Shown here piece after piece: positions 2,107 to 26,905 of a DNA stretch of 28,630 bases. The position numbers and the translations under genes were made by a program. This DNA is from a bacterium (lineage in GTDB: Bacteria > Myxococcota_A > Bradymonadia > Bradymonadales > Bradymonadaceae), in the NCBI GenBank assembly GCA_030427705.1, contig JAUIBR010000002.1:1-28630 (forward strand), written 5' to 3'. The first letter of the stretch is position 1, and each line of letters starts with the position of its first letter. The notes below the pieces were generated by a model. That model saw only the letters and a program-made list of their open reading frames with translations, made no database searches and had not been told where the DNA came from.

Positions 2107-2107
2107 C

Positions 2108-4789: not shown

Positions 4790-7700
4790 CAAAGCACACT
4801 TTGCTTGGGCTCGCGATGGTTCTAGCGCTATCGAGCTGTGCCTCGGAGCCCCAGCAGTTGCAGGACACCCCGACAGTCGAGGTCCTGCGTCTCAATATCA
4901 CCAAGGTTCGAAACGCCATCGCCGAGACGCGCGCAACCATCGCGGTCTCCCGTGGTGCGCCCTACCTTCCTGAATTCTATGTGCGTCTTGCCGAGCTTCT
5001 CAGTGAAGAAGCGCGATACCACTACCAGCTGGCGTACGAACGTGAACAGCGCTCAACGAAAGTGCTTCACGTGCCGCAAGTCCGCTTGCTGAAAGAGGAT
5101 GCGATCAATACTTACGAGATCGTGTTGAGCCGTTTCCCGGACTCACCGCTCGTCCCACGCGTTCTTTTCAATATTGGCCACGAACATCGTGAACTCGGTA
5201 ATTTCGACGAAATGCGAAAGGTCTTGAACCGGCTCGTCGATAACTACCCAGATTCCCCGCTTCGTGCGGATGCTCTCATCGTGTTGGGTGACTACCACTT
5301 CGACCGAAATGAACTGCCAGATGCGCTGCGCTACTACGAAGAGATCGCGAAAGGAGAGCTGACGCCAGTCACTGGTCTTGGCCACTACAAACTCGCTTGG
5401 GTTTGGGTCAACGAGGGTGAGTGCAAGCCCGCGCTCGACAACTTCGAGAAAGCGATCGAACGCTCCAACGATTGGGCCGAGCGTATGCGTAAGCTCGCAT
5501 TGCAGAAGATTGAGACTCCGCTCTTGGTTCAGGCCGAAGCTGGAGACGAGATTACGACTCAGCAGGATATCGATGTTCGACGCGAATCCCTGGTCGACCT
5601 TGCGTACTGCTATTCACGCCTGCGAAAGCCCCAAGATTCGGTCAAATTCCTTAAGAAGTATGCCTACAACCGAGAGACCTACGTCGCTGCGCTCAATAAG
5701 TTGGCGAATCGCTATCGCACCATGGACCAATTCCAGGGTGCGGTGCTGATCACCCGAGAATTGTTGAGTTTGGGTGCTGCGAATATCGACCGACTCGACG
5801 ACGCGCGGACGTTGTACACGTCGATCAAGAAGTTGAAGGACTACCGAACCATCGGAGTAGATGCGGAGCTGATTGGTGACTCGCTGACCAATTACTACAG
5901 CCGTGTGAACATCAAGGCCGACGAACGAGAGCGATTGGTCAAGGAATTCGAAGTCTACCTTCGTGACCTCGCCACGACCTCACAAGAACGGATGATCAAG
6001 AAGCGTCGCAAGTCTGCTGGCCCCGAGGACGTGGCACGAGCGTACAAAGCCTACCTCGACACCATTCCCGTCAGCGACAAACGACCCGACATGCTTCTGA
6101 ACTACGCAGACCTTCTGGGTTCAAACGGTCAAGAACTTGAGGCAGGTGTGCGGTCGATGGAGGCTGCAGATTTGCTGGAAGACGACGGACAGCGCCGCGA
6201 CGCACTTTACGACGCGGTCGTCTACTTCCAAGCGTCGCTCGCCAAAGAAAGCGACCGCCTGCGCTACGAGCGCGTTGCGGCCCGCTCGGCGCTTCGTCGT
6301 GCCGGCGCCACCCTGCTCTCGTACAAGCTCAACGAAGAGAAAGAGCGACGTGTGAAGTTTGCCATCGCGCAGGCTATCTACGACGAGGGCCTCTATGTTG
6401 AGGCTATCGATAAGCTCTCTGCCGTCGCCTACGAGTTCCCGGGCACGGATGAGGCTGACGCCGCGGTGAAGTTGACGTTGGACAGCTTCAATACGCTCAA
6501 TGATTACGACGGCCTGATGTACGCCAGTCGCCGATTCTTGAGTGCAGGAAGCCCGGTTTCAGACAAGCTGAAAGGCGAAATCAAACGAATCCAGGGTGCC
6601 GCAGAACAGCGCAAACTTGACGAGCTCGCCCTGGCAGCAGCTGGTGAAGATGGGGCAGATATCTCGCCACTCATCGCCTTCGCCGAGAAGAACAAAGGTA
6701 CTGACCTTGGGGAGCGTGCTCTTATCAACGCGTTCGTCGCGGCCCGCGCCACCGGCGACACCGAGAAGATGTACAAGCTCGCCGATTCGATGGCGAAAAC
6801 CTATCCGAAGAGCGACCAGCTTCCCGGTATCTACACGACCTTGGCCCAGACGGCGGTCGCGCGCTTTGACTACGACACAGCAATCCGGTTCATGAAGCGG
6901 GCTGCGGACGTCAACCCATCGCAGCGCATCCGACTGCTCATCGCCGCAGGCGAGCTGAACGAACAGCTCGGCGAACCGAAGAAGGCTGAGAAGCTCTTCG
7001 ACGAAGCCCTCAGTGACAACAATCCGCAGTCGCAGGCCGACGCCTTGGAGCGCTTGTCTTCGATGATTGAAAAGTATGACGGCGTCGATTCGGTCAAACG
7101 CAAACTGAACTCCTACACCGACCAAGGAGAGCCAGAAACCAACTCACGAATTGGACTGGCGATGATTGGAGCTGGAAACGCAGAGGAAGGCGAGATGCTC
7201 TTGCAGAGCGTCCTGAACAACGATTCGGCGTCTGGTGAGGCGCTCGCTCGCGCCCACTTCGGAATGGGCGAGTTGATGCTCAATGTCATCAACCAGTACC
7301 CAGACCCTGAGGATGTCGACCTCATCGAGGAATTCATCATCCTCATCGACGTTATGCAGCAGAGCTACCTGAACGCGGCTCGGCAAGGCAGCTACACGTA
7401 TGCCGCGGCTTCGCTGTCACGCCTTTCTTCTGCGCTCATCTCGGTTTCTAAGAAACTGAGCCGAATGAAGATGCCGGACGGATTGACGGGGGCTCAGAAG
7501 CAACAGGTCAAAGCAGCGCTCGACGCGCGTGTCGAAGGTCTCGAGCAGAGCGCTTCCGAAGCGCTCACCGCTTGTGGGAATCAAGCCTGGACGGCTGCGA
7601 ACTTCACTCCACCCGTGCGTGACTGTCTCAAAGGCAACGCGTTGGATGGAATCGAGGTCAAGTTCGACCAGGTGAAATCCCGAAGTGCGAAGGCCCCGAA

Positions 7701-8058
7701 GGGTTTGGACGAGCTCCGTGCTGAGCTTTCCAAGAACCCTGAGAACGTCGATAAGCTGCGTGAGCTTGCAGAGAAGTTCCTGGATGCCAAAGACCCCCAC
7801 TCGGCGCGACTGGTGCTCGCACGAGCGATTCAGGTTGGCGGTGGTGCCCTTGAGCAGAATCTCATCGGCGTCGCGTCCTACGAGATTGGCGACGTTGCCT
7901 CAGCGTTTGATGGGTTCGCGCGAGCCGCCGAAGGTGGACTCGAAGCGGGTCGAACAAACATGAAGACGTTGCTCAAGAAGGAAGGCCTTTCCAAGCAGGT
8001 CAGTGAAGTGGATAAGCGATTCCAGAAAGGCCGTGACGGCGGGAGGTTGATCAAATGA
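4777..8058 (+). CDS. large (1093 aa) TPR-repeat lipoprotein
   Basis: The ATG at 4777 is preceded by GGAGG. The signal peptide with lipobox is MYRVAKHTLLGLAMVLALSSCAS. Many TPR-like repeats are present (..ALIVLGDYHFDRNELPDALRYYEEIA.., ..GHYKLAWVWVNEGECKPALDNFEKAIE..). Its size class and architecture are like GltD/NfsD-type periplasmic TPR scaffolds (inference). Confidence 0.8.
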   Translation: MYRVAKHTLLGLAMVLALSSCASEPQQLQDTPTVEVLRLNITKVRNAIAETRATIAVSRGAPYLPEFYVRLAELLSEEARYHYQLAYEREQRSTKVLHVPQVRLLKEDAINTYEIVLSRFPDSPLVPRVLFNIGHEHRELGNFDEMRKVLNRLVDNYPDSPLRADALIVLGDYHFDRNELPDALRYYEEIAKGELTPVTGLGHYKLAWVWVNEGECKPALDNFEKAIERSNDWAERMRKLALQKIETPLLVQAEAGDEITTQQDIDVRRESLVDLAYCYSRLRKPQDSVKFLKKYAYNRETYVAALNKLANRYRTMDQFQGAVLITRELLSLGAANIDRLDDARTLYTSIKKLKDYRTIGVDAELIGDSLTNYYSRVNIKADERERLVKEFEVYLRDLATTSQERMIKKRRKSAGPEDVARAYKAYLDTIPVSDKRPDMLLNYADLLGSNGQELEAGVRSMEAADLLEDDGQRRDALYDAVVYFQASLAKESDRLRYERVAARSALRRAGATLLSYKLNEEKERRVKFAIAQAIYDEGLYVEAIDKLSAVAYEFPGTDEADAAVKLTLDSFNTLNDYDGLMYASRRFLSAGSPVSDKLKGEIKRIQGAAEQRKLDELALAAAGEDGADISPLIAFAEKNKGTDLGERALINAFVAARATGDTEKMYKLADSMAKTYPKSDQLPGIYTTLAQTAVARFDYDTAIRFMKRAADVNPSQRIRLLIAAGELNEQLGEPKKAEKLFDEALSDNNPQSQADALERLSSMIEKYDGVDSVKRKLNSYTDQGEPETNSRIGLAMIGAGNAEEGEMLLQSVLNNDSASGEALARAHFGMGELMLNVINQYPDPEDVDLIEEFIILIDVMQQSYLNAARQGSYTYAAASLSRLSSALISVSKKLSRMKMPDGLTGAQKQQVKAALDARVEGLEQSASEALTACGNQAWTAANFTPPVRDCLKGNALDGIEVKFDQVKSRSAKAPKGLDELRAELSKNPENVDKLRELAEKFLDAKDPHSARLVLARAIQVGGGALEQNLIGVASYEIGDVASAFDGFARAAEGGLEAGRTNMKTLLKKEGLSKQVSEVDKRFQKGRDGGRLIK

Positions 8059-8822
8059 AACACCTCATCCTGATTCTCATTCTGACGTTATTGGTTCCGA
8101 TTGGTTGCGGAAGTTCGGTTAAACCAATCGACCTTCATGACCCCAACGTCCCACTCGATGCGCGTCGCTTCGTCGCTGACGCACAAGACGCTGTATCGAT
8201 TGCTAGAGCACGTCGTGACGAGGCTGCAGATCGCCTTGCGTTTGCAGAGAACTGGCAAGACGAAGTCACGACACCAGAGCTCTGGCCGAAGGGCTCAGAC
8301 GCCATCCTGCAAAAGCTAAAGACGTTTACGCAGGCTCGCGTCGACATGAGTGAGCTGGAGTTTGAACAGGCATCGGCCAAGCTGGACTTGGCGGAGGCCA
8401 AATACGACCTTTCGACCGCACAGACTGCGATGCGAAACGACCTCGCCGTCTATGATCTTGAACCGCTGAAGGCTCGCGCCGAGTCAATTCGTGGGGAAAT
8501 CGAGACGCTCTCAGGAAAGATCGAGGACCAACGCCTCAAGTTGGACAAGCTGACGCTGGACTGGTGGAAGTCCTACAGCAAATTCGCCGGCGATAAGGAA
8601 GTTCGCGCTTTCTACGTATCTCCGCAACTCTTCGCTGAACTGAAAGCCCGTGATGCCGACCTCAAGGCCAAGCGTGCTGAGAAGAAGAAGCAGGACGAAA
8701 AAGACGCCAAGGATAAGGACAAAAAGAACGCCGACAAAGACGCCAAGAAGGACGACACGCCGGCTAAGAAACCCTCGGAAGAGAAAATTACCGAGGATGA
8801 TGCGATTGACTTGGACCTCTAG
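8055..8822 (+). CDS. coiled-coil lipoprotein with Lys/Asp-rich low-complexity C-terminus
   Basis: The ATG at 8055 overlaps the upstream stop (ATGA), with GGGAGG 8 nt upstream. The signal peptide with lipobox is MKHLILILILTLLVPIGCGSS. Heptad-like coiled-coil segments are present. The tail is KKKQDEKDAKDKDKKNADKDAKKDD. Confidence 0.7.
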   Translation: MKHLILILILTLLVPIGCGSSVKPIDLHDPNVPLDARRFVADAQDAVSIARARRDEAADRLAFAENWQDEVTTPELWPKGSDAILQKLKTFTQARVDMSELEFEQASAKLDLAEAKYDLSTAQTAMRNDLAVYDLEPLKARAESIRGEIETLSGKIEDQRLKLDKLTLDWWKSYSKFAGDKEVRAFYVSPQLFAELKARDADLKAKRAEKKKQDEKDAKDKDKKNADKDAKKDDTPAKKPSEEKITEDDAIDLDL

Positions 8823-8854
8823 TCCAACTCTCGCGATTCACTTCCAACTAGAAA

Positions 8855-9367
8855 TCAGTCGCAAGGATTTGCGGGGACTTCTTCATTGAACTCACACGGA
8901 GTCACAATGGACTTGTCCTGTCCGTCTGCGACCGTCTCCGCGCACACTGGCACAACAAGCTGAGGGAAGTTCCCTGCATCGCTCTCGATGACCAGAGCAA
9001 TAGCATCGCGTCCAGGGTTCTCGCGCTCATAGGTAAGTCGGAAGGCGTATTGCTCACCCCCGTTGACCTTTGATGGCAGTGGGTCCTCGGACTCCAAAAT
9101 CCAATTGGAGTTGATGACACCCTGGTTGCCGATAAGGCACGCCTTTTCGATGTTGATCGCTGCGTTCTCGGCCTCGACCAACAAGGCAAACTCGTATGGA
9201 ACGCGTTCGTTGGAGCCTGGCTCGGCGTCATTAGCGCCCTGAGGCCAGAGCTTCCCGAGGTTTACAGGTGAGACGGCAGGCAGAATGTCTCCGCCCTCTT
9301 CGTCCGACGATCCACATCCGAAACACAAACAGGACGCGGCACACAGTGCGAAATACTTCGCTTTCAT
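8855..9367 (-). CDS. lipoprotein of unknown function (last gene of minus-strand operon)
   Basis: The signal peptide with lipobox is MKAKYFALCAASCLCFGCGSSDEE. AAGGA lies upstream of the ATG. It lies 24 nt downstream of the pseudokinase-TonB-like gene. Confidence 0.7.
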   Translation of the reverse strand: MKAKYFALCAASCLCFGCGSSDEEGGDILPAVSPVNLGKLWPQGANDAEPGSNERVPYEFALLVEAENAAINIEKACLIGNQGVINSNWILESEDPLPSKVNGGEQYAFRLTYERENPGRDAIALVIESDAGNFPQLVVPVCAETVADGQDKSIVTPCEFNEEVPANPCD

Positions 9368-9391
9368 TGGCGTTCCTTTCTAAATACCTAA

Positions 9392-12300
9392 TCAGCCAGA
9401 TTTGAAGATGAATGGGAACTTGATGATGACTTCGCCGCCTTTCGGACGTGGGAACTTCATCCCTTTGATGACGCCGCTCACGCACTTGGAGACTTGAGCG
9501 CTGCCCAGTGAGTTGCCTTTCTCTTTGACCGCACCCACACGCCCGTTGGTCTTCACAGTCCATTCGAATGTCAGCTTACCGCCCAACGACGGATTTTTGT
9601 TGAGCTCTTTCTCGTAGCACCGTTGGATCTTGCCCATCGAACCCTGGATAACCTCCCAGACTTGGGAGCGAGACAGCGTACCTTGGACTTTGGCGAGTGC
9701 TTTGACACCACGCGCCTTGCCGCGGACCTTGCCAGATTTCTCGCGCGCTTTGAGCTTCCCGGTGCCGCCATCGACAGAGCCACCGATGTCACCAATCTTG
9801 CTGCCACCTGGGTCGCGAGCAATGTTGACCTTGCCGCCTTCAAGCGCGCCCAACGTACCGGTGACGTTAAACGCTGCATTTGAAGCTCCTGGCTTCGCCA
9901 CTGCGTCGATATTCGTGACCACGTCTTTGATGGTTTTGCCCTCCCCTTTCTGCGGGGTGGTGAGGGCTGCCATCAGACGGTCGGCCTTGTCCTCGTTCTT
10001 TGTCGATTTGTTTCGAAGTCGCTTATCAAGCTGCTTTCGAACCGACTTAGGAATCTTCGCTTTAGCCTCGGTCGGGTCGACCGGTTTCTTTTCCGATAGC
10101 TTCTTTGGCTTCGGCTTTTTCTTCTTCGGCTTTGGCTTCGGCTTCGGCTTTTTCTTCTTAGGCTTATCGAGCTTGCCTTCGGCGAATACCTCGACCTCAT
10201 CAGGACGGTTGATGGTGAGATTCATACCAAGCTCGGCACTAAGCAGCGCGCCCAACATTCCGAGCCCATGGAGCACCAACGAGATAGCGAACGCGATGCC
10301 GTAAATCTTCAGTTCTTGGGGCGTGAGCAGTCGCTGATCACGCGATGGTGGCTGTGGAGGTCGGAAAAAGCGGACGTAATACTTCAGCCCATCTTCCTCG
10401 AATTCGACAGCATCTCCGGGCTTCATCGACAGCTTGTCACGGTCGCCCAGGTTTTCCTTCGGCGCATTTGCCAGGCGGACCCAGCCTTGTACGGGCTTTT
10501 TGAACTTCAAGGTCGCCGAACCACCACTCTTCGTTGCTGAGAACGACGAACCAGGTCGCTTGTAACGCCCGAGCCCCCGAATCACCGTGATGTCTAGCGG
10601 CGCATCGGCAGCGGTTCGAATGATCTCCAGCACCGGTTTGGTATTGGATTCTTTCGGCGCGAGTTCTGGAGGCTCCACGATAAGGTCGATCGGGAACGGT
10701 TCAAAGAACGGTTCCTCATCTTCGTCATCCTCGTCGAGCGGCAGAAACTCAGGCATGAATTTCTGGGGTTCCGGAGCGGGCGCTGCTTGCGCTGCTTGCG
10801 CAGGCGCAGGTTCCGGTTGTGGCGCAGGTGCGGGTTCTGCGGCGGCTGGAGGCTGCGTCTCCGCGAGCTCGTCCTCAAAGCCCGCAGGAACGTCCTCCGG
10901 TGTCTCCGGCATCGGTTGCGGTTTGTACGCTGCGTGCGTCACCGCGGGGTCTTCCCCAATCCCAAGCGCTTCTGGAACGTCTTCGAACATCGGATTGGGC
11001 GCGACATTGGTTTCAGCCCGATCCGCGTCTTCCATCCGAGTTTCCAAACTTGGAGTTCCGGTCGGTAGCGTCTGTGCGAGGTCTTCGTCTGCCCATTGAA
11101 GGTTGGGTACGTCATGAGGAAGTGTGGTCTCGGCTGGATTGCCAAGGGGCGCGGACGTCATGACCGTTTGGTCGTCGTCGCTACCCGCGGCTTCCATGAG
11201 CCGAGAAACCTCTGCTGCCGACGTTTGGACCGTCGGTTCCTCTGCAACCGGGTCGTCCCACATTCCGGCCAGCTTATCGGCGGCCGCACCAATCGGGGCG
11301 GCATCCCAGCCTTCTCCTACCGGATTAGGCTCGCCATCCAAGATGCCGAGCGCTGCATCAACGTCCTGCGCAAACTGGGCGACCATATTGCCGTCGATGC
11401 GATCTGTGTGGGACTCGGCAGTTTTAGGCGCGGTCTGTTGAGCCCGAAGCGCGGCAGCGTGATTTTGATTTGTTGCATCAACCGTCGCGTCGTTGATTTG
11501 GAACAACGACATCGCAACATCGCCAGCACCACTAAAGTCACCGGCGCGGGACTTCTGCTCTAGCGCTTTCCATCGCTCAAGCCGTTTCGGGAACAGCTGC
11601 GACATGATCCGCGGAACGCGTTCCAAAGCCTTGGATGGGTCGCTAGCGAGCTTTCGCAGCGCGACCGCCATGTGTTCAGCATTTTGGAAGCGATCGTCTG
11701 GACGGCGCTCCAGCGCGCGAAGAACGATGCTATCTAATCCTGGAGTTACCTTCGCGTTGTAGGCCGAAGGAGGCTGAATCGGTTGCTCACAAATCGCTTT
11801 TGCAACATCGCCACCTTCGAAAAGTCGACGCCCGGTCAACAGTTCCCAAAGGACCACAGCAAGCGAAAAGACGTCACTTCGCGGCTCAGCAGGACGACCC
11901 CGGACTTCCTCAGGAGACATGTAGGCGATGCGGTCGACCGCCATGGGCGCAACATTATTCAAGTGCGCCTGGCGTATACCCTTGGCGACTCCAAAATCCT
12001 GCAGGACAACGTTGCCCTCGTAACTAAGCGCGATCGTGTGAAAATCGATGCCACCGTGCACGACCTTGAGCGACCAACCGGCAGCGTTTTTCGCTGTATG
12101 GGCGTGGTGCAGGGCTTCGGCAGTGACCGTCGCGAGCGAGATTGCGAGAGGAATCGTCAGGGTTTCATAGCCCCGGCGACGCAGCTCGTCGAAGAAGTCG
12201 CGTAGGGTTTCGCGAGAGTTGATGTCCTTGATGAACCAGACAACGCCGCCCTCTTTGCCAGCGGCGAACGTCGTTTCAATGTTTGGATGCTTGAGCTGCA

Positions 12301-12493
12301 TTGCGAGCTGCAGCTCATAGTCGAGGACCGTATCGACGCCAGGAGCGCTGGCAACTTCGCGTGGAAACGACGTCGCGCGAACAATCGGCAACTGGTCGTA
12401 GTCTGGCTCTCGGTTTTTCCCAATCCATGTCTCGTGCAGACCGTCCTTGGTCAATTGCGCGAGCATGTCGAATTTGGTTAGGACCGTCGTCAT
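9392..12493 (-). CDS. inner-membrane protein with an N-terminal degenerate Ser/Thr protein kinase (pseudokinase) domain, one TM helix, a periplasmic Lys/Pro-rich linker and a C-terminal TonB-C-like domain
   Basis: The 1033-aa ORF has an ATG start that overlaps the upstream stop (ATGA). Residues ~8-285 have a PknB-like kinase fold (DFG, SPE, RSDVFSLAVVLWELLTG, RFQNAEHM), but the catalytic motifs are replaced (see findings). The region of residues 520-720 is an acidic/Pro-rich linker followed by a small beta-rich module. The TM helix is IYGIAFAISLVLHGLGMLGALLSAELG. The Lys/Pro linker is KPKKKKPKPKPKPKKKKPKPKK. The C-terminal ~95 aa is basic and beta-rich, ending in ..GEVIIKFPFIFKSG, typical of TonB/TolA C-terminal domains. 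Confidence 0.85.
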   Translation of the reverse strand: MTTVLTKFDMLAQLTKDGLHETWIGKNREPDYDQLPIVRATSFPREVASAPGVDTVLDYELQLAMQLKHPNIETTFAAGKEGGVVWFIKDINSRETLRDFFDELRRRGYETLTIPLAISLATVTAEALHHAHTAKNAAGWSLKVVHGGIDFHTIALSYEGNVVLQDFGVAKGIRQAHLNNVAPMAVDRIAYMSPEEVRGRPAEPRSDVFSLAVVLWELLTGRRLFEGGDVAKAICEQPIQPPSAYNAKVTPGLDSIVLRALERRPDDRFQNAEHMAVALRKLASDPSKALERVPRIMSQLFPKRLERWKALEQKSRAGDFSGAGDVAMSLFQINDATVDATNQNHAAALRAQQTAPKTAESHTDRIDGNMVAQFAQDVDAALGILDGEPNPVGEGWDAAPIGAAADKLAGMWDDPVAEEPTVQTSAAEVSRLMEAAGSDDDQTVMTSAPLGNPAETTLPHDVPNLQWADEDLAQTLPTGTPSLETRMEDADRAETNVAPNPMFEDVPEALGIGEDPAVTHAAYKPQPMPETPEDVPAGFEDELAETQPPAAAEPAPAPQPEPAPAQAAQAAPAPEPQKFMPEFLPLDEDDEDEEPFFEPFPIDLIVEPPELAPKESNTKPVLEIIRTAADAPLDITVIRGLGRYKRPGSSFSATKSGGSATLKFKKPVQGWVRLANAPKENLGDRDKLSMKPGDAVEFEEDGLKYYVRFFRPPQPPSRDQRLLTPQELKIYGIAFAISLVLHGLGMLGALLSAELGMNLTINRPDEVEVFAEGKLDKPKKKKPKPKPKPKKKKPKPKKLSEKKPVDPTEAKAKIPKSVRKQLDKRLRNKSTKNEDKADRLMAALTTPQKGEGKTIKDVVTNIDAVAKPGASNAAFNVTGTLGALEGGKVNIARDPGGSKIGDIGGSVDGGTGKLKAREKSGKVRGKARGVKALAKVQGTLSRSQVWEVIQGSMGKIQRCYEKELNKNPSLGGKLTFEWTVKTNGRVGAVKEKGNSLGSAQVSKCVSGVIKGMKFPRPKGGEVIIKFPFIFKSG
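9395..9676 (-). other. TonB-C-like C-terminal domain
   Basis: The C-terminal ~94 aa follow the proline/lysine-rich spacer and are periplasmic by topology. Composition and length resemble TonB_C/TolA_C. An HMM search is needed to confirm. Confidence 0.5.
10226..10306 (-). other. single transmembrane helix of the 1033-aa protein
   Basis: Reverse-complement translation gives LKIYGIAFAISLVLHGLGMLGALL. It is followed by the KP-repeat linker encoded at ~10094..10168. Confidence 0.7.
11639..12472 (-). other. kinase-like (predicted pseudokinase) domain of the 1033-aa protein
   Basis: The catalytic-loop segment VVHGGIDFHTIAL is encoded at 12026..12064 (checked by reverse-complement translation). It takes the place of the canonical I-V-H-R-D-x-K-x-x-N. 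Confidence 0.7.
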
Positions 12494-13005
12494 TCCTTCT
12501 TACCCTTCAACTTCTTCGATTCGCCTTCCTTCTGGATCTCCTTCTCTGCTTCGACTTTCGTTTTCTCGAATTGTTCCACTTGTTCTCGGCCGAGCACGTT
12601 TCGAACCGTCAGTGAAAGGTAGCTGTCGCGCTTCTTTACCATGGATGGCAGTGGTCGAGGCGCACGTTGAAAAAGGAAGACTGCGCCGGATCCTGCGGTC
12701 TCACCGCGAATCAAGCGACCATCGAACTCCATCCGGTTTCCGCGTTGGAGTGTGGCTGCTTCGACTTGTTCGCCCGCTTCTTCTTCGCCCTCTTCGCCTT
12801 CCTCGCCTTCTTCACCCTCTTCCTCATCTTCCTCGTCTTCCTTGTCCTTCTTCTTTTTCTTCTTTTTGGACTGAGCGAGGATGATTTGATCGCCTGATCC
12901 ATCAAGGATCTTTAGACCGCTATCTTGCGCCGATGCATTGGTCGAAAATGTGACCAATGAGAGCGCGATGAGTACGAGTAAGATGTGCTTTGCCATGGGG
13001 CTCAC
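12490..13005 (-). CDS. secreted protein with a poly-Lys / (Glu-Glu-Gly)n low-complexity segment
   Basis: The signal peptide is MSPMAKHILLVLIALSLVTFSTNASA/QD. The start may be the GTG at 13005 or the ATG at 12996. The low-complexity run is KKKKKKKDKEDEEDEEEGEEGEEGEEGEEE. There are 4-nt overlaps with both neighbours. Confidence 0.6.
   Translation of the reverse strand: MSPMAKHILLVLIALSLVTFSTNASAQDSGLKILDGSGDQIILAQSKKKKKKKDKEDEEDEEEGEEGEEGEEGEEEAGEQVEAATLQRGNRMEFDGRLIRGETAGSGAVFLFQRAPRPLPSMVKKRDSYLSLTVRNVLGREQVEQFEKTKVEAEKEIQKEGESKKLKGKKE
12766..12870 (-). repeat. coding low-complexity repeat (poly-K then (EEG)n) within the secreted protein gene
   Basis: It is visible in the DNA as ..cttcttcgccctcttcgccttcctcgccttcttcaccctcttcc..cttctttttcttctttttgg. 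This is coding sequence, not a CRISPR or SSR locus. Confidence 0.6.
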
Positions 13006-13484
13006 TTCTTCATGATCGCAAGGCGATACTTGTCAAAACCTGCCATACTGGCAGACCGCATAACGAGATACAGCGTCTGGTAATCCAAGCCTTTGTCAGC
13101 CTGAATCAAGACGATTGCCGGATCTTCTTCGTTTTCGGGGTCTTCGATGGCGAGAATCCGCTCACGCTCTTCCTTGAGCAGCTCAACGACCTCGGGAATC
13201 TCGCCGTCGGAATAATACTGTTCGTCGAATTTGCCGCGATTGAGCGTCATGACCTTCTTGCCATCGAGCTTTAAATCAACTGGCGTAATCGCCAGGTTGA
13301 CCGCCGGCTTCAGGACCGATTGCGCTGATGACTCAGGAAGTTTGAGGTCTGAATCGAGTTTGAACTCGTAATCTTCAGCCTCGAAGCTGACGATGAGGAA
13401 AATCAGGATGATGGTGAACATGTCCAGAAGGGACGTCAGCATCAGGCCTGCAGGCTTCTTCTCTCTGGCGAAGCGACTGTTCAC
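13002..13484 (-). CDS. exbD: ExbD/TolR family biopolymer-transport (proton-motive-force stator) protein
   Basis: At 160 aa it has a short cytoplasmic N-terminus. The TM segment LMLTSLLDMFTIILIFLIV contains the conserved protonatable Asp (aa 21, codon 13422..13424). A periplasmic domain follows. It has a GTG start and 4-nt overlaps on both sides. Confidence 0.85.
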   Translation of the reverse strand: MNSRFAREKKPAGLMLTSLLDMFTIILIFLIVSFEAEDYEFKLDSDLKLPESSAQSVLKPAVNLAITPVDLKLDGKKVMTLNRGKFDEQYYSDGEIPEVVELLKEERERILAIEDPENEEDPAIVLIQADKGLDYQTLYLVMRSASMAGFDKYRLAIMKK

Positions 13485-14101
13485 TCTTCGCCTCCTTCAT
13501 CCATCTCCATCTCTTCTTCGCCGCCAGCTTCACCTTCGCCCTCAGGGTCTTCGCCCTCATTGATGGGGTTCTCGGTGATCTTGCGACTAAAGATGGTCAC
13601 AGGGAAAAGGTCTTCGCGGACGTCTTCACCATCTTTGTCTTTGCCCGTCACATGGTTACGCGTGTGGTCGAGAATCTCGACCAGGTCTTGGTATCCAAGC
13701 TTTTCATGGGGCAATACGGTGATGGTGTTTGACTCGGGATACTGTCCTTTGATGTCCAAGAGCGCCGCTTGCACGTCTTTTACGGGGTACTTCCCGGCCT
13801 TCTTACCCCACTCGCCAGAGAGTGCCGTAAGTTGCTCTTCGCTCAAACTCACACTCGCTGCCGAAATCGCAATCGTATCCACATCGATTTCCATGTTCAC
13901 AGCCACCGTGGTCGGCGTCTTGGGAACATCGGAGTCCGATGGACTCAACGTAGGCGTCGAGGTCGGAATCACGCCGATATGGAAGAAGGTCGCGCCCAAC
14001 AGAAGGAACGGAATCAAGACCATGAACAGGTTCATGACCGGGACCACGTTCAAGTCTGCAGCGGCCTCATCGGCGGCAGATTTGAATCGACTAAAAGCCA
14101 C
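13481..14101 (-). CDS. ExbD/TolR-like paralog with Asn in place of the conserved TM Asp and an acidic C-terminal tail
   Basis: It is 206 aa. The TM segment DLNVVPVMNLFMVLIPFLL aligns to ExbD ..NVTPFIDVMLVLLIIF.. with Asn24 (codon 14030..14032, checked) at the Asp position. The C-terminus is EGEDPEGEGEAGGEEEMEMDEGGEE. Confidence 0.8.
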   Translation of the reverse strand: MAFSRFKSAADEAAADLNVVPVMNLFMVLIPFLLLGATFFHIGVIPTSTPTLSPSDSDVPKTPTTVAVNMEIDVDTIAISAASVSLSEEQLTALSGEWGKKAGKYPVKDVQAALLDIKGQYPESNTITVLPHEKLGYQDLVEILDHTRNHVTGKDKDGEDVREDLFPVTIFSRKITENPINEGEDPEGEGEAGGEEEMEMDEGGEE

Positions 14102-14111
14102 GAGTTACGTC

Positions 14112-14837
14112 CTAGCGTTGGGCTCGACCATCTGTGCCCGAGTCGCCTCGAACACCAGCGATTGCTACTAGAACCGAACTTGCGCCGCCTTCCATTTCCA
14201 ACAAGATCGTTTCGACCCGTTTGGAAAGAAGGTGGTGGAAAAGCAAGAGCGGAACAGCAACGGAAATCCCGAAAGCCGTCGTGTACATAGCTTGGGAGAT
14301 ACCGTCGGCAAGTGCTGCCTGTCGTTCCGCGGCGGACGCGGCGGCCACACTCGAGAACGCGGCAATCAGACCGAAAATCGTACCCAACAGCCCGAGCAGC
14401 GTCGCGATATTGGCCATCACGGCCATGATCGCCACTCGCTTCTGGAGCTGAGGGATGGCGGCCAGCATCTCGTTCTCCATCGCACGCTCGATCTCTTTCT
14501 CGCGGCGGTTGGAACGAAGAAGGCCGGCCTTAATCACGGCAACCAACGGATGCTTTGAGCTGGCCTCAGTTGCATCGATGGCTTCCCGGAATCGCCGGTT
14601 TTCGACCTGGCTGACGACCCGTGCAACGAAGTTTCGCGCATTGAGCCGCCGTAGCAGGTAAAGGTTAAAGGCGCGTTCTAGGAACATCGCCACCCCGATC
14701 ATCGAGACGATCAGGATGACGTACATCATCCAACCGCCCTTATCGAGGTACTCCAGCAGAACGTTACCGCCCCCAGCCTCTTCCGCAGCAGCTTGTGCGA
14801 GAATTGGCGTCACAAAACTTTGAATCGTCGGAAGCAT
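14112..14837 (-). CDS. exbB: ExbB/TolQ/MotA family proton-channel protein
   Basis: It is 241 aa with three predicted TM helices (..WMMYVILIVSMIGVAMFLE.., ..AIMAVMANIATLLGLLGTIFGLIAAF.., ..AMYTTAFGISVAVPLLLF..). It lies immediately upstream of the two exbD-like genes. Confidence 0.85.
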   Translation of the reverse strand: MLPTIQSFVTPILAQAAAEEAGGGNVLLEYLDKGGWMMYVILIVSMIGVAMFLERAFNLYLLRRLNARNFVARVVSQVENRRFREAIDATEASSKHPLVAVIKAGLLRSNRREKEIERAMENEMLAAIPQLQKRVAIMAVMANIATLLGLLGTIFGLIAAFSSVAAASAAERQAALADGISQAMYTTAFGISVAVPLLLFHHLLSKRVETILLEMEGGASSVLVAIAGVRGDSGTDGRAQR

Positions 14838-14901
14838 CTTCTTCCCAAGTTTCGAAAAACGACTGATTTATGGTGTTTCTTTGCTCGGGAAAGGTACCAC
14901 G

Positions 14902-14964
14902 TGTTTGAAAACTCGCGCAAGTTCACACACGCCTTAAACCACCCGAGGATCTGCGTTTTCAAAC
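14902..14964. promoter_or_regulatory. 10-bp inverted repeat pair GTTTGAAAAC..(~42 nt)..GTTTTCAAAC in the 145-bp leader/promoter region upstream of exbB
   Basis: It was read directly (..cgtGTTTGAAAACtcgcg....tgcGTTTTCAAACgaag..). Coordinates are approximate. It lies in the only sizeable intergenic gap inside the minus-strand operon. Confidence 0.3.
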
Positions 14965-14981
14965 GAAGAGATTTCGCCGAG

Positions 14982-16952
14982 CTAGAGCCCGGAATCTGGC
15001 GAAATCACAGGCCGAACGTACTCTGAGTCTTCGATCAGGATGATCGCGTCGTCTGGAATTCGACGATTGGGTGGCAGATATTGAATCTGCAACTGCGCCA
15101 TTCGGAACGGTCCCGGAGCCAACGGTCGACCTTCTGGCCCCTGCGCAAAGAACAACAACACATTGTTGATTCCTGGATTATCGGGGTCGTCATCCAACGC
15201 AATCGTCGGCATCAACTGAATGTTCCGAATCGTGTATTGAAGGCACTGGCGGTCCCGGAAAACCACGCGGATCGACTCGGTGTCGTCGGCGATTGGGAGG
15301 TTATTGGGGTCAACGCGCACCCGAATGTACTTGCCTTCCTCACGCTGAATAGCCGCGAATGACGAAGACGTCAGGCGGAACTCTCCTCCCGATGAAACCG
15401 GAACCGGCCGTCCTGGATCTGGGTCGTTCGAGTCCTGCCAAGCAAGGGTGCGATTTGCTGCATTCCAACGCAGCGTCCCAATACCTGCCGTCGTCCCATC
15501 GCTGATTTCGGTCACGATCACGCCCGTGATGCGCTCAGGATCGCTAGCGAAGAGTTCACGCGAAAATCCTTCATCAACAACGTCGTAGCGATAGCCGAAC
15601 GATAGGTGAGCTCTCGTATCTGTGGATCGTGGGTCACTATGCTGAAGCAGCTCGTCGCCGTTGTTCACCCCGTCACCATCGGTGTCATTCTCAGCGTCGC
15701 GGTTCAGGTAATCCGTGCCCGAGAGCACCTCCAATGGGTCAGGCATGCCATCACCATCGGTATCCACCAGAGTGGGCTCCGTGCCTAGCAGCGCTTCATC
15801 ACAATTGGTGAGGGTATCGAGGTCCTCATCGGCACCGGGAATCATATTCTGACATGCGGTTGGGAATGGGTCTTCAGGCACAAGCGGATCCAGCCCGGCG
15901 AAGGACTCCACACGGTCCGAGATACCATCAAAATCGGTGTCTCGGTTCCCCGGCGAGGTGCCCAGCGATTCTTCTTCAGCATCCGACAGGCCGTCCGCAT
16001 CTGAATCGATGACAGGTCCGTCGGGGCCTGGCTTCGCGTTCAGGTTTGCCGCCAAGAGCAACTTCGCATTCAAGACCGTACGTAGGCCGAGCAAATCGAA
16101 CGCACTGGCCGATACCCCGTCGATATTATTGTAGCGCTGGTACACGCCACCGCCCGCGAACGCCATCTGTTCAAGCGCCGCTTGTTCGGAGTCGTTGATC
16201 GCCAGATTCGGCGCGACCTCAGCGGCGAAGTGGATGGGGTGGTAGCGCAATCCTGCAGCTCCCTGCTCCACGACCGTCTCACGTAGATCGGTGATCTCTT
16301 CAACACTCAAGGCCAGGTTACATGCGGCGCTCGGGCCCATGTTGGCGTCCTGACACTGTGTATCGTCAGGCAAGCAACACTCGGCGCCATCGGCGAGCGG
16401 TTCATGCTGGCCCGCGTTGACGTGAATGATGATGTATTGCGTTAGGACGCGCAGACCTGCCGGCGTGTTGGCGATATCGCCTTCGATCAATGCCCGCGCC
16501 GTGCGAAGCGCTTCCCGATAATCCCGACATTGTCCAACGCCAGCGCAGGTTTGCGGCAGTGACGTCGCCGTTACCGCGGCGAAGAGCTCGCCCGGGTTGC
16601 GGGTGAAGTTGCCTTCCTGGGGCGCCAATTTTCGAGGAATGCCGCCATAGCCAATGACGGCCATCTCGGTCTGGTCGCCATTGAGCGCCTTTTGAACGAA
16701 ATCGTTCATGTAGATGACGCGCTGGCTCGCAGCATCAAAGCTTGAGAACAGGGGTCCAGGTGCCTGGTCTACCAAGAGGACAATCTTGATCGGGAACTCC
16801 GCCTCAAACGGGTCCTCGGAACACGCGCGCCCACTCATCGCGAGGCGGCTTGCCTCTTTCTTCGGCTTTGCCGGGCTGTACAAACTGGTGTCGGTGCAGC
16901 TGATGCCCATCAGCGCAGCCAAAAAGACCGCGATTAGCGCTTTGACGTTCAC
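14982..16952 (-). CDS. lipoprotein with thrombospondin type-3-like Ca-binding repeats
   Basis: It has a GTG start. The signal peptide with lipobox is MNVKALIAVFLAALMGISCTD. Four D-x-D-x-D-G-x-x-D-x-x-E motifs are present (DSDADGLSDAEE, DTDFDGISDRVE, DTDGDGMPDPLE, DTDGDGVNNGDE). Its stop overlaps the upstream lipoprotein gene. Confidence 0.8.
   Translation of the reverse strand: MNVKALIAVFLAALMGISCTDTSLYSPAKPKKEASRLAMSGRACSEDPFEAEFPIKIVLLVDQAPGPLFSSFDAASQRVIYMNDFVQKALNGDQTEMAVIGYGGIPRKLAPQEGNFTRNPGELFAAVTATSLPQTCAGVGQCRDYREALRTARALIEGDIANTPAGLRVLTQYIIIHVNAGQHEPLADGAECCLPDDTQCQDANMGPSAACNLALSVEEITDLRETVVEQGAAGLRYHPIHFAAEVAPNLAINDSEQAALEQMAFAGGGVYQRYNNIDGVSASAFDLLGLRTVLNAKLLLAANLNAKPGPDGPVIDSDADGLSDAEEESLGTSPGNRDTDFDGISDRVESFAGLDPLVPEDPFPTACQNMIPGADEDLDTLTNCDEALLGTEPTLVDTDGDGMPDPLEVLSGTDYLNRDAENDTDGDGVNNGDELLQHSDPRSTDTRAHLSFGYRYDVVDEGFSRELFASDPERITGVIVTEISDGTTAGIGTLRWNAANRTLAWQDSNDPDPGRPVPVSSGGEFRLTSSSFAAIQREEGKYIRVRVDPNNLPIADDTESIRVVFRDRQCLQYTIRNIQLMPTIALDDDPDNPGINNVLLFFAQGPEGRPLAPGPFRMAQLQIQYLPPNRRIPDDAIILIEDSEYVRPVISPDSGL
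15633..16010 (-). repeat. coding region of the four TSP3-like calcium-binding repeats
   Basis: Coordinates come from residue numbering (aa ~315-440). Confidence 0.55.
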
Positions 16953-17509
16953 TGCTCTCCTCCGACCTCGGGAATCATCTCGCAGAATGGCTCAGTTGCG
17001 GGCATTGCCGGATCTGGCTCAGTACCAGGCTCCGAGTTACATGCGCCGCGGTCATCACCCAGCTCGATAGTAGTGCACTGCCCATCGCCATAACAGGTCT
17101 GGCCAATGGGACAGCTAATACGCAGGCACGACCGGGTAATGCCCATCGAAATCGAGATATCATCGCCTTCTTCGGCGTTCAATCGGCGCTCAAAGGTGGA
17201 AACAACCGCGCCACCTTTCAAACCTTGAAGGACGACCCACCCATCGGGCGGAACCTCAGTGAAATTGAATGACGTTGGAAGTGAAGTAACCTTTTCTTCG
17301 CCGTTAACACACGTGGCCAAATCTTCGGCGCCGTCCACCTCGATGTTCGCGCGTTCGGAGTCGTAGATCAGAACTTTGTAGCCATCGACCTCAAGCGGAA
17401 TCTCGACATCACCGCAAACCTCAAGGTTGAGATTCGCTCCCTCGGCAAAACACCCTGTCAGCGACCACGCAAACAGCATCAGCCCGAGGGTCAATACGCG
17501 CATTTTCAT
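16949..17509 (-). CDS. Cys-rich lipoprotein (first gene of minus-strand operon)
   Basis: The signal peptide with lipobox is MKMRVLTLGLMLFAWSLTGCF. The mature part has 9 Cys (..RSCLRISCPIGQTCYGDGQC..). AGGAAA lies upstream of the ATG. There is a 4-nt overlap with the next gene. Confidence 0.7.
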   Translation of the reverse strand: MKMRVLTLGLMLFAWSLTGCFAEGANLNLEVCGDVEIPLEVDGYKVLIYDSERANIEVDGAEDLATCVNGEEKVTSLPTSFNFTEVPPDGWVVLQGLKGGAVVSTFERRLNAEEGDDISISMGITRSCLRISCPIGQTCYGDGQCTTIELGDDRGACNSEPGTEPDPAMPATEPFCEMIPEVGGEQ

Positions 17510-17590
17510 TCTGGATTTCCTGATATTGACATCGGCTCCAGATTAGCAACAACGCTGACACGCCGCAATGCGCGCTTGCGGGCCAAATTA

Positions 17591-18721
17591 CTAGAGAAAT
17601 GACAAGGGTTGATGACCCAAGGACTCTCCGCCTAACCAACGTTTCGAAAGTGTCGCATACACCCGCCGATAGTCTGTTGTGAACTTCAGGTCGCCTGCGT
17701 CCAGGTCGGTCAACGATGGTGTCTCTCCAAACACACCGCCCTTCACGGTTCCGCCCAACACAAACAGAGGCGCGGCGGTACCGTGATCCGTACCCCTTCC
17801 AGCATTCTCTTTCACCCGCCGTCCGAACTCGCTGTATGTCGCCACGACGACTTCGTTCCACCTGCCATACGTCTGCAGGCTCTTCGCGAATGCAGCCAGA
17901 TTCTGACCAACATCCGTCAGCAGACGGCTGTGCTTTTTAGGTTGCTGTGCATGCGTGTCGAATCCTGACAGCTGCACTTTCACGACCGTCAAGGGCACGC
18001 CTGCGCCCAGCATCTGCGCGGTCATCTGTAACCCACGCCCGAGAGACGACTTCGTAAAGTCTCCATTCGGCGACTTCGAGGGCCCTACCCGCTCTTGAAT
18101 GCTCGCGATCGAACCAACCAGGTCATTCTGTGTCTGAATTACGTGGGCGAGCGCCGGGTTCTCTGTTTTCACGTCAACTCGTCGTAGGCGTTGTCCGTGC
18201 CGAAACAACTGCTGCGGCGACTCGACGGTCAATGCGGACACTCCCCGAAGCGGACCATCCTCACCGGCACCCGCGATCATGGCACCAGGCAGCGGCCCAA
18301 CGCCGTCTGGCAATGCCGAAGATAGCCAACCATCATGCAGATACTCGTTGGAGTCCGACGCCGTTTCCCAAATCTCAATCGACCGGAAATGGCTCCGATT
18401 GGGGTTGGGATATCCAACGCCCTCGACCACCGCGAGGTGCCCCTCATCCCAAAGCGGACGAAGTGGATTCAGTGTGGCGTTGAGGTACGGGCCCTTGTCC
18501 AACCGAATCACCTCTGACTTTGATAGGGCGAGATTTGGGCGCAGGCGCTTGTAGGTTGGGTCTTCGAACGGCACGACGGTATTCAGGCCGTCGTTTCCGC
18601 CCTTCAATTCCACCAGTACCAACGTGCGGCCGTGGGTCTTCTCCATCGCCCACATCGTCCCGGGGGCCAGAAGCGTCAATCCAGCCAGGGAAGACAGTTG
18701 CAGAAATTCTCGTCGTTTCAT
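17591..18721 (-). CDS. DUF1501 family protein (alkaline-phosphatase/sulfatase-like fold), Tat-secreted
   Basis: The twin-arginine signal is MKRREFLQLSSLAGLTLLAPGTMWA. Family-typical segments are present (..VVEGVGYPNPNRSHF.., ..GTDHGTAAPLFVLGG..). Confidence 0.85.
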   Translation of the reverse strand: MKRREFLQLSSLAGLTLLAPGTMWAMEKTHGRTLVLVELKGGNDGLNTVVPFEDPTYKRLRPNLALSKSEVIRLDKGPYLNATLNPLRPLWDEGHLAVVEGVGYPNPNRSHFRSIEIWETASDSNEYLHDGWLSSALPDGVGPLPGAMIAGAGEDGPLRGVSALTVESPQQLFRHGQRLRRVDVKTENPALAHVIQTQNDLVGSIASIQERVGPSKSPNGDFTKSSLGRGLQMTAQMLGAGVPLTVVKVQLSGFDTHAQQPKKHSRLLTDVGQNLAAFAKSLQTYGRWNEVVVATYSEFGRRVKENAGRGTDHGTAAPLFVLGGTVKGGVFGETPSLTDLDAGDLKFTTDYRRVYATLSKRWLGGESLGHQPLSFL

Positions 18722-18731
18722 TTTTGTCTCC

Positions 18732-20057: not shown

Positions 20058-20134
20058 TCGGCCGGTTCATGCCTTAGTGGCAACCGCGAGCGCCTTTGTA
20101 TGACAAGAATCTTGGAATCGAGCGCAAATCGAGA

Positions 20135-21253: not shown

Positions 21254-21918
21254 TCGACGATCCAGTCGATGACCTTTTCCATTAATGGGGCCGCCATCTC
21301 CCAGCTCTTCATGCCGGGAACAGCCGCGATCCGTTCGAAATTTGTGAAACGAGCCAGCGCCGTCGCATTTCGTCCGGTGGACCGATCGGACTCCGAAGGC
21401 GCGCTGAACACGACGGCCGCCAGCGGGACATCATTCGCCTCCAGAACCTGCATCGACAACATCGTGTGGTTCAACGTGCCGAGCTTGTCGCTTGCCACCA
21501 ACACCACCTTCGCATCGAGTTTCTGCGCCATCGAAAGCGCGGTCTCTTTCCAGGTCAGCGGTGAAAGCAATCCACCCGCACCCTCGACCAACACGATGTC
21601 GCAAGTTCGGGCATAACCTCGGATCACGCCAATCCATCGGCCAAACTCGAGCTTCACCTTTTCCAGATCTGCTGCATCAGGTGGGGCAAGGGGAGCCTTC
21701 AATCGTTGAAGCGCTTCAGTGGGTTGCTCTTGCAGCGTACCCATCGCCAGAATGCGGCCATCTTCTTCATCCGTGACCTCGCCGACCCGACCGCTCTCGA
21801 CAGGTTTAATCGCGACCGTTTTGTAGCCGCGTTCGGCGAACGCACGACCAAGTGCTGCGCCAACAAACGTCTTTCCAACTTCCGTGTCCGTCCCCGAGAT
21901 GACCACGATTTGAGCCAT
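21250..21918 (-). CDS. bioD: dethiobiotin synthetase
   Basis: The N-terminal P-loop is MAQIVVISGTDTEVGKTFV, the classic BioD motif GTDTxVGKT. There is a 1-nt overlap with the bioA stop. Confidence 0.9.
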   Translation of the reverse strand: MAQIVVISGTDTEVGKTFVGAALGRAFAERGYKTVAIKPVESGRVGEVTDEEDGRILAMGTLQEQPTEALQRLKAPLAPPDAADLEKVKLEFGRWIGVIRGYARTCDIVLVEGAGGLLSPLTWKETALSMAQKLDAKVVLVASDKLGTLNHTMLSMQVLEANDVPLAAVVFSAPSESDRSTGRNATALARFTNFERIAAVPGMKSWEMAAPLMEKVIDWIVE

Positions 21919-23309: not shown

Positions 23310-23312
23310 ATC

Positions 23313-24293: not shown

Positions 24294-24354
24294 CTGGACT
24301 CCTCTAGCAACCCGCATTGATTACCAACACATCGCCCAGACATGAAGAACAATA

Positions 24355-26888: not shown

Positions 26889-26905
26889 GGTCAGATGTTT
26901 GCACG

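Follow-up and report, generated by a model that had tools for sequence, protein, structure and literature searches.

The locus and its eight-gene block

A 28,630-nucleotide (nt) stretch of a Bradymonadaceae genome (Myxococcota_A; assembly GCA_030427705.1, contig JAUIBR010000002.1, positions 1 to 28,630), referred to here as the window, carries on its minus strand a block of eight open reading frames (ORFs) that probably encodes the motor-bearing half of a trans-envelope machine of the Agl/Glt family, the family that includes the gliding machinery of Myxococcus xanthus. The eight minus-strand ORFs are designated G1 to G8, and are to be distinguished from the M. xanthus G5 cluster (MXAN_1327-1331), which is a separate entity. 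The first two genes encode a Cys-rich lipoprotein of 186 aa (G1, 16949-17509) and a 656-aa VWA-TSP3 lipoprotein (G2, 14982-16952). They are followed by a 241-aa channel subunit of the TolQ/ExbB/AglR type (G3, 14112-14837) and by two TolR/ExbD paralogs, one of 206 aa with an Asn at residue 24 (G4, 13481-14101) and one of 160 aa with an Asp, D21 (G5, 13002-13484). The remaining three genes encode a secreted protein of 171 aa with a Lys run and a Glu run (G6, 12490-13005), a bitopic, 1033-aa GltG-like transducer with a pseudokinase N-terminus (G7, 9392-12493), and a Cys-rich putative lipoprotein of 170 aa (G8, 8855-9367).

The block had been noticed from the sequence alone, and each of the eight ORFs placed by that original prediction is present where it was said to be. 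Reading of the junction letters revealed that G1/G2, G4/G5 and G5/G6 overlap by GTGA and G6/G7 by ATGA, with intergenic gaps of 10 nt between G3 and G4, 24 nt between G7 and G8, and 144 nt between G2 and G3. The description of the junctions as short overlaps or gaps of at most 24 nt therefore stands, whereas the leader in front of G3, given as 145 bp, measures 144 nt. Profile searches matched the domain labels that had been proposed for G2 (TSP3), G3 (ExbB), G4 and G5 (ExbD) and G7 (kinase), and the lipoprotein or secreted labels agree with a lipobox Cys in G1, an invariant Cys19 in G2, a signal peptide in G6 and Cys-containing candidates in the signal region of G8.

Conservation and the convergent gene cluster

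Synteny was assessed by tblastn of 20 window proteins onto fetched relative loci, denoted by L-numbers, among which L029 is the complete genome of the cultured Bradymonas sediminis FA350 and L032 is a Sandaracinaceae locus. All eight genes recur in unchanged order, at 33-84% protein identity, in L001, L002, L004, L010 and L015 and in B. sediminis FA350 (CP030032.1, about 2.350-2.358 Mb); the block is thus conserved as a unit in related genomes, i.e., in five loci and one cultured species. The system is nonetheless larger than the eight genes to which it had been confined, as at least seven more on the convergent strand (179-8822) co-occur with them, and the two sets are fused into one array elsewhere.

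This plus-strand cluster converges on the block, the stop codons of its last gene and of G8 being 32 nt apart. It opens with P478 (179-1615), a 478-aa lipoprotein with a weak likeness to BNR/sialidase-type beta-propellers (BNR_2, 21 bits, below the cut-off), followed by P172 (1588-2106, likely start 1612), a small putative lipoprotein with SIGC read by eye, and P163 (2087-2578, likely start 2108), a small Cys-containing lipoprotein with the lipobox LTGC. The next gene, OMP222 (2683-3351, likely start the ATG at 2725), encodes a 222-aa outer-membrane beta-barrel of the GltA/GltB type that passes the TIGR04565 (OMP_myx_plus) model at 65.8 bits against a cut-off of 60. GltC488 (3323-4789) is a 488-aa, GltC-like putative lipoprotein (NSGC, by eye) with tetratricopeptide repeats (TPR), and the specific NCBIfam model it matches best is that of GltC, below the cut-off of 450 (47.6 bits, E = 1e-12). 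TPR1093 (4777-8058) is a 1093-aa TPR lipoprotein, lipobox LSSC, which has the position and size of GltD; it matches multiple TPR families, including YbgF-type repeats at 66 bits (cut-off 90), and is 41-70% identical in 15 loci. The cluster closes with CC255 (8055-8822), a 255-aa putative lipoprotein (PIGC, by eye) that is coiled-coil-like and has a K/D-rich tail.

The full module is found in the same convergent layout in L001, L002, L004, L010 and L015. In Polyangia/Myxococcota metagenome-assembled genomes (MAGs; L011-L014, L018) and in L032 it forms one co-directional array, ordered P478, P172, G2, (P163 in L012, L013 and L018), G3, G4, G5, G6, G7, OMP, GltC, TPR, CC. P478 is syntenic in L001, L002, L004, L011-L015, L018 and L032; P172 is syntenic in both types of layout and lies directly upstream of G2 in L011-L014 and L018; and CC255 follows the large TPR gene in both. 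P163 behaves as a movable piece of the cluster, being co-directional with its neighbours in the window, inverted in L001 (19628-20089), L002, L004, L010 and L015, and located between G2 and G3 in L012 (5070-5525), L013 and L018. That both clusters are inherited together through layouts as unlike as these speaks for a single functional system.

The motor subunits

G3 matches PF01618 (MotA_ExbB) at 98 bits (cut-off 22.9), the NCBIfam model it matches best is TolQ (68 bits; cut-off 221), and its protein identity across the loci is 54-84%. Both G4 and G5 match PF02472 (ExbD) above the cut-off, at 43 and 50 bits, respectively. The suggestion that G4 is an Asn variant of ExbD proved correct: it reads LNVVPVMN where the Escherichia coli ExbD has INVTPFID, placing Asn24 at the position of the transmembrane Asp (PVMN versus PFID), whereas G5 retains the Asp. 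The G5 segment LTSLLDMF aligns to VTPFIDVM of the E. coli and Serratia ExbD proteins, its D21 is invariant among homologs, and in size (160 aa) G5 is AglQ-like.

An Asp-type and an Asn-type TolR occur together in every syntenic locus, including those of a second paralogous system described below (L021-L024), and the PxMN motif is invariant. A search for G4-like proteins returned 795 matches at E <= 1e-3, and Asn (PxMN) is carried by 124 of the best 150 representatives of clusters formed at 50% identity; judged by sequence, the Asn-type TolR/ExbD-like proteins form a large subfamily. A sequence search of the PDB with G4 gave no useful match. In the M. xanthus gliding motor, according to a review, AglQ and AglS both carry the transmembrane Asp, in contrast to the window pair, in which one member has Asn. 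The invariant Asp/Asn pair bears on 5:2-type stators, as here one subunit only can carry the proton.

The transducer and its pseudokinase

G7 combines a kinase-like N-terminus (Pkinase, 61 bits, residues 59-270) with a C-terminal end typical of the family. Its last 92 residues (940-1031) match the AgmX/PglI domain model NF033768 at 98.4 bits against a cut-off of 40, and the protein matches the full GltG and GltJ models below their cut-offs (81 bits versus 650, and 62 versus 450, respectively); AgmX is GltJ and PglI is GltG. The Pfam scan gave no TonB_C (PF03544) match on G7, and some of its orthologs have sub-threshold TonB_C matches of 19-20 bits (cut-off 24.6). In the AlphaFold2 (AF2) model, a kinase-like fold (10-330) leads into an extended stretch of disorder. 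An all-beta domain (620-712) comes next and immediately precedes the transmembrane helix (725-754), after which follow a K/P-rich periplasmic linker, also disordered, and a folded C-terminal alpha/beta domain (922-1033).

Alignment to the Mycobacterium tuberculosis kinase PknB places HGGIDFHT of G7 at HRDVKPAN, with loss of the catalytic Asp, and the N-lobe (Gly-rich loop and VAIK Lys) found no alignment to PknB. Since the catalytic Asp is absent and the N-lobe is not alignable, G7 would be unable to phosphorylate, and the replacement of HRD by HGG upholds the original prediction that it is a pseudokinase. Among the orthologs the catalytic loop reads HGG, HGA, HAH or HKG, and the DFG motif is often lost.

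The N-terminus is also the part of the protein that varies in kind. It is an FHA domain in L014, L016 and L017, kinase-like in L009, L010, L029 and L031, and made of helical (TPR-like) repeats in L032, the Bradymonadales-type proteins having the kinase-like form. Constant across the orthologs are an acidic DDDE-F-EPF patch, the membrane-adjacent beta-domain, the transmembrane helix and the C-terminal domain. Such exchange of FHA, pseudokinase and helical modules suggests that the cytoplasmic end of a GltG-like protein is a modular site for input or docking, and by analogy the pseudokinase is probably a cytoplasmic docking or regulatory module. Full-length proteins that join a kinase to a GltG tail are rare, forming only seven clusters among 5.8 billion sequences, and the closest relatives of G7 come from Bradymonadales, Bradymonadaceae and Microvenator MAGs. 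A protein search with the C-terminal 312 aa, in which the poly-K linker dominated the choice of words, returned no named Myxococcus GltG. The pseudokinase in place of the FHA domain is the truly unusual part of the locus, and is new.

The lipoproteins and the secreted protein

G2 is the most informative of the exported proteins. The Cys of its signal region (GISC) was missed by the lipobox regular expression, and this residue, Cys19, is invariant in 68 homologs. The AF2 model (pLDDT 94) has a VWA fold over the first approximately 250 residues, which Foldseek matches at probability 1.0 with CMG2/ANTXR2 and with two adhesins of pilus tips, Mfa5 and RrgA, and with a target-normalised TM-score of about 0.68 to CMG2. 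This is followed by four or more Ca-binding TSP3 repeats (TSP3_bac, 56 bits, four stretches) and a C-terminal beta-sandwich. At the position of the DxSxS motif of the MIDAS, an adhesion site that depends on a metal ion, G2 reads D62-Q-A-P-G, without the serines; D62 and G66 are invariant, and A64 is kept in at least 90%, of 68 sequences. The best family match of G2 is to MtsD, at 125 bits where the cut-off is 800; the 651 positions of that model compare with 656 aa in G2, and the CglD model scores 37 bits (cut-off 400). On these matches, all below the cut-offs, G2 appears to be an adhesin-like protein related to MtsD and CglD. Its best 120 homologs are all of Bradymonadales or MAG origin. In L032, two VWA_2 proteins of 695 and 731 aa, distant paralogs of G2, and a TSP_3 protein of 453 aa are encoded immediately upstream on the other strand (3330-9079), which suggests a local family of adhesin-like cargo genes.

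G1 has the lipobox LTGC and 9 Cys residues, and homologs with 30-47% identity lie upstream of G2 in L001, L002, L004, L010, L015, L029, L031 and L032. G8 has 8 Cys residues and two lipobox candidates in its signal region, AASC (found by the regular expression) and CFGC (read by eye); a homolog follows G7 in all loci of the kinase type. Both proteins are confined to the kinase-type loci and the Sandaracinaceae locus. Neither matched anything in Pfam, NCBIfam or PHROGs, and the absence of a PHROGs match leaves no sign of a phage link for these small proteins of unrecognised family. No paralogy was found among the small lipoproteins.

G6 has a signal peptide, a K-run and an E-run of variable length, and no Pfam or NCBIfam model match, and across the loci only a core of about 55 residues is conserved (LQRGNRMEFDGRLIRGETAGSGAVFLFQR.PRPLPSMV). 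Its gene directly precedes the GltG-like gene, as that of GltF does, and its kinship to GltF is positional only.

Transcription units

It had been proposed that the eight genes form a single coupled operon, and this is doubtful. The leader between G2 and G3 contains a promoter-like motif on the minus strand (14891-14920), composed of TTGCGC, an 18-nt spacer that ends in TGG, and TACCTT. The pattern AACTTGC...GTGGTA..TT is kept in six orthologous G2-G3 leaders that are otherwise about 50% identical. A promoter-like element of the form TTGC-N17-TAnnnT also lies upstream of G1 (17540-17568, minus strand), with relatives in three of the four aligned loci (L001, L004 and L015; it is unclear in B. 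sediminis), and the leader and upstream elements share the form TTGC(G/T)N, 17-18 nt with TGn, TAnnnT. Moreover, in L031 the pair G1-G2 is divergent from G3-G8, and G3-G8 continue directly into P163-OMP-GltC. The two motifs and the L031 layout together suggest two units, G1-G2 and G3-G8, an arrangement that is compatible with read-through. The leader motif is, to judge from its conservation, likely an internal promoter for G3-G8, and transcription probably starts both upstream of G1 and within the G2-G3 leader. The idea of a riboswitch or attenuator in the leader was rejected, as the window had no Rfam match and the leader fold has z = -0.57. A generic scan for promoters and terminators found nothing above chance, and the stop-stop junction of G8 and CC255 has a modest fold (z = -2.0).

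Relationship to the Agl/Glt family

The original prediction had compared the block with the Agl/Glt and Nfs machines of Myxococcus. This comparison was right, and the relationship extends beyond mere resemblance to homology with the Agl/Glt family, because G7 and OMP222 pass the AgmX/PglI and OMP_myx_plus models, there are sub-threshold matches to GltG, GltJ and GltC, and the gene order is that of the M. xanthus G5 cluster. The placing of the motor among periplasmic and outer-membrane scaffold proteins was also borne out.

The common ground with the Agl-Glt gliding machinery comprises a TolQ-like AglR with two TolR-like subunits, a bitopic GltG with the AgmX/PglI domain, the periplasmic TPR scaffolds GltC and GltD, barrels of the GltA/B type, and VWA lipoproteins. 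GltG of that machinery has an N-terminal FHA domain, a central FHA domain before the transmembrane helix, and a TonB-C-like end, and the published model has an AglR5-AglQ-AglS complex with a heterodimeric plug joined to GltG, the C-terminus of GltF being placed between GltC and GltG, on GltD. The gliding-machine adhesins CglB and CglD are VWA lipoproteins, CglD bearing TSP3/COMP repeats. The window system differs in several respects. The cytoplasmic module is a pseudokinase instead of an FHA domain; there is only one barrel; and G2 has the VWA domain first and lacks the MIDAS serines, whereas in CglD the TSP3/COMP repeats come first and the MIDAS is functional.

The closest correspondence is with the M. 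xanthus G5 cluster, as judged from gene order, size and published assignment. Luciano et al. 2011 (PMC3169522) list MXAN_1327 (1089 aa) as a GltD homolog with TPR, MXAN_1328 (538 aa) as a GltC homolog, MXAN_1329 (246 aa) as a GltB homolog, MXAN_1330 (749 aa) as a GltG homolog with FHA, and MXAN_1331 (162 aa) as a GltF homolog. Their counterparts here, in the same sequence, are TPR1093 (1093 aa), GltC488 (488 aa), OMP222 (222 aa), G7 (1033 aa) and G6 (171 aa), so that G6-G7-OMP-GltC-TPR mirrors MXAN_1331-1327 with near sizes. Neither cluster has a GltE. The M. xanthus cluster differs in having no motor genes of its own, its aglRQS-like genes lying elsewhere, whereas the window cluster contains the motor, and in having an FHA domain in MXAN_1330 where G7 has the pseudokinase. 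MtsC corresponds to MXAN_1334, and from these locus tags the mts locus of M. xanthus seems to abut the G5 cluster. The mts neighbourhood would then place a TSP3 lipoprotein, MtsD, near the cluster, as G2 is here, with the G2 match to MtsD far below the equivalog cut-off. The literature cites MtsC as acting in cell-cell cohesion, S-motility and development. On sequence grounds, the locus may thus be assigned to the G5/Mts type of Agl/Glt machine, the mts link being made by locus-tag nearness and a sub-threshold hidden Markov model match.

Other systems close to the window locus include the Bdellovibrio clusters Bd1474-1481 and Bd2369-2377 (PMC3169522), which unite GltC, GltB, GltG, GltF and GltD with AglS, AglQ and AglR homologs in one locus. 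They belong to a different lineage and, compared by description, list no pseudokinase or VWA-TSP3 lipoprotein. With them are grouped the core complexes of Geobacter and the Gammaproteobacteria. According to Luciano et al. 2011 (PMC3169522), the conserved core complex consists of aglR, aglQ, aglS, gltC, gltD, gltE and gltG, and expanded versions, the kind to which the window machine is assigned, occur in the Myxococcales and Bdellovibrio; the literature has not established a function for this ancestral core.

The composition of the block had been regarded as undescribed. This does not hold for its two TolR proteins, which are the AglQ/AglS hallmark, for the charged protein, which occupies the GltF position, or for the TSP3 protein, which is related to MtsD and CglD; it does hold for the N-terminal pseudokinase, which is new. 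Relative to the family, the new features are the pseudokinase in place of FHA, the fixed Asp/Asn stator pair and the MIDAS-less VWA-TSP3 lipoprotein, and the locus is not a new type of system.

A proposed mechanism

By analogy with the AglR5QS-GltG model and with the GltC/D/F/G periplasmic complex, the components can be arranged as follows. G3, by sequence a member of the TolQ-like channel family, would have as its plug a heterodimer in which G5 (Asp) pairs with G4 (Asn), the paralogs and their residues being observed and the heterodimer postulated, and proton flow through the single Asp would drive the motor and move G7. G7 may dock on the channel through its transmembrane helix and membrane-adjacent beta-domain, and its pseudokinase would serve as a cytoplasmic docking or regulatory end in place of the FHA domain of its relatives. 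The K/P-rich linker would span the periplasm, allowing the TonB-C-like domain to engage TPR1093, GltC488 and the conserved core of G6. These scaffolds may in turn couple to the OMP222 barrel and to outer-membrane lipoproteins including G2, the fold of which is modelled. As output, a surface adhesin that binds Ca, with G2 the likely cargo, would be moved or exposed in a force-dependent manner, and this could be used in surface adhesion and gliding, or in cell-cell cohesion.

We therefore consider it likely, though well short of certain, that the eight genes form the inner-membrane and motor half, together with three lipoproteins, of an approximately 15-gene trans-envelope machine of the Agl/Glt family whose output would be the movement or exposure of an adhesin. 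As to function, our best guess, again by analogy, is the handling of an adhesin for gliding or cohesion; the mts link points to cohesion. Bradymonadales do glide, and their gliding has been attributed to pili.

Several observations weigh against this interpretation. No protein reaches an equivalog cut-off for Glt, Cgl or Mts proteins (GltG 81/650, GltJ 62/450, GltC 48/450, CglD 37/400, MtsD 125/800), and the window proteins are therefore to be regarded as family members, not as orthologs of proteins with proven functions. TPR1093 matches no Glt-specific model, its GltD label resting on size, TPR content and position. No counterparts of GltE, GltH, GltI, GltJ, GltK or CglB were identified in the window. 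The membrane-adjacent beta-domain of G7 lies where GltG has its central FHA domain, but it had no Pfam match even at E = 10, and its hhalign comparison with the second system's N-terminal domain was not significant (probability 1.8%). The eight-gene block of B. sediminis stands alone, with no TPR/OMP cluster beside it. The adjacency of the G5 cluster and mts rests on locus tags, and every contact in the mechanism is inferred. Lastly, a polar insertion in the gltD homolog MXAN_1327 of M. xanthus caused no gliding or twitching defect, and the nearest characterised relative therefore gives no support for a role in motility.

Alternative explanations

The alternative that survives best, though we hold it to be unlikely, is that the motor and transducer move or organise a surface polysaccharide or coat instead of an adhesin, as the Agl-Nfs machine does with the spore coat in M. 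xanthus. Nfs is the closest Glt paralog and uses AglRQS, the second Agl/Glt-like locus of the relatives adjoins a Wza/EpsE-type export gene (L022, 12465-13106), and the ancestral core complex, lacking an established function in the literature, could accommodate such a role. The window cluster itself, however, has no gene for polysaccharide synthesis or export in it or beside it, and the VWA-TSP3 lipoprotein is kept in every layout. We also know of no report of sporulation in the Bradymonadales.

A Tol-Pal-like system for envelope integrity or division, with a TolQR motor, a TolA-like protein and TPR proteins of the YbgF/CpoB kind, is improbable. Tol-Pal and TonB-ExbB-ExbD do belong to the same family of 5:2-type proton channels and share with the window system a bitopic partner that has a Pro/Lys-rich spacer and a small C-terminal alpha/beta domain; in addition, the best NCBIfam match of G3 is TolQ, TPR1093 has repeats of the YbgF kind, sub-threshold at 66 bits (cut-off 90), and P478 may be a beta-propeller, as TolB is. 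The likeness does not extend to the rest of the locus, where no match to PD40 or OmpA-family domains, and hence no TolB or Pal, was found in any neighbouring window protein, and where the two TolR paralogs are non-identical, one of them without the Asp, and the partner is of the GltG type (AgmX/PglI family). Dedicated TPR, barrel and lipoprotein partners set the window system apart from both Tol-Pal and TonB, and its gene order follows that of the M. xanthus G5 cluster, not that of ybgC-tolQRAB-pal. Moreover, a bona fide Tol-Pal system exists separately in M. xanthus, beside its Agl/Glt clusters.

The weakest alternative, a classical TonB-ExbB-ExbD unit that energises receptors encoded elsewhere and is flanked by unrelated lipoprotein genes, is suggested by the ExbB and ExbD Pfam domains of G3-G5, the sub-threshold TonB_C matches of some G7 orthologs (19-20 bits against 24.6) and the TonB-like appearance of the K/P-rich linker, and is very improbable, in keeping with the original prediction, given that G7 passes the AgmX/PglI model and has no PF03544 match, that the two ExbD paralogs, one of the Asn type, are fixed, that motor and flanking genes are inherited together through widely differing layouts, and that there is no TonB-dependent receptor among the scanned window ORFs.

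Significance

To our knowledge, the Agl/Glt family is the only TolQR-type motor that has been recruited for gliding and for spore-coat assembly, and for most of its paralogs, among them the M. xanthus G4 and G5 clusters and the ancestral core complex, we know of no assigned function. In the present locus a candidate adhesin cargo is encoded alongside the motor, the transducer, the scaffolds and the barrel, and as the block is also present in the cultured predator B. sediminis, it offers a compact system for genetics. Its main value would lie in serving as a compact, possibly tractable model for those family paralogs that have no known function.

A bolder reading of the adhesin-moving machine, which we put forward tentatively and consider rather doubtful in its entirety, is that the locus encodes, largely in one place, an entire machine of the Agl/Glt family, with a single-Asp stator, a dead-kinase module and a MIDAS-less VWA-TSP3 cargo, that could be the engine of Bradymonadales gliding or of prey or cell adhesion. 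If this were true, the function of the ancestral core complex and of G5-type clusters would become directly testable in the culturable B. sediminis.

A second system in related genomes and the surroundings of the block

Bradymonadales and related genomes contain a second, paralogous system (L020-L024), as in L022 at 1311-13106. Its first gene encodes a GltD-like protein with TPR (1191 aa), and next in order come a GltE-like protein (112 bits), a TolQ-like subunit, an Asn-type TolR, an Asp-type TolR and a short GltG-like protein (118 bits), after which come, in L022, two ORFs without assignment and the Wza/EpsE-type polysaccharide export gene mentioned above. The two types of system co-occur, as L022 and L008 derive from the same MAG and the genome of L024 also has a G2 homolog, P0182.

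Upstream of G1, a DUF1501/DUF1800 pair lies between G1 and a gene for a fused MFS/spermidine-synthase-like protein (window 17591-24317), the DUF1501 protein having a twin-arginine-like RREFL leader. The region also includes four ORFs (20135-24317) that by eye look like bioF, bioD, bioA and bioB. The fused gene itself (24355-26511, minus strand) encodes a 718-aa membrane protein that matches NF037959 at 47.7 bits against a cut-off of 40. In L001 and L015, homologs of this gene and of P157, the Cys-rich 157-aa ORF that comes next in the window, lie within approximately 1 kb of G1, and the segment 17591-24317 is therefore an insertion relative to these relatives. The P157 ORF and an aminotransferase-like ORF occupy 26508-28285 and are listed as overlapping head-to-head at 26873-26981; at least one of the two start codons is therefore probably later than listed.

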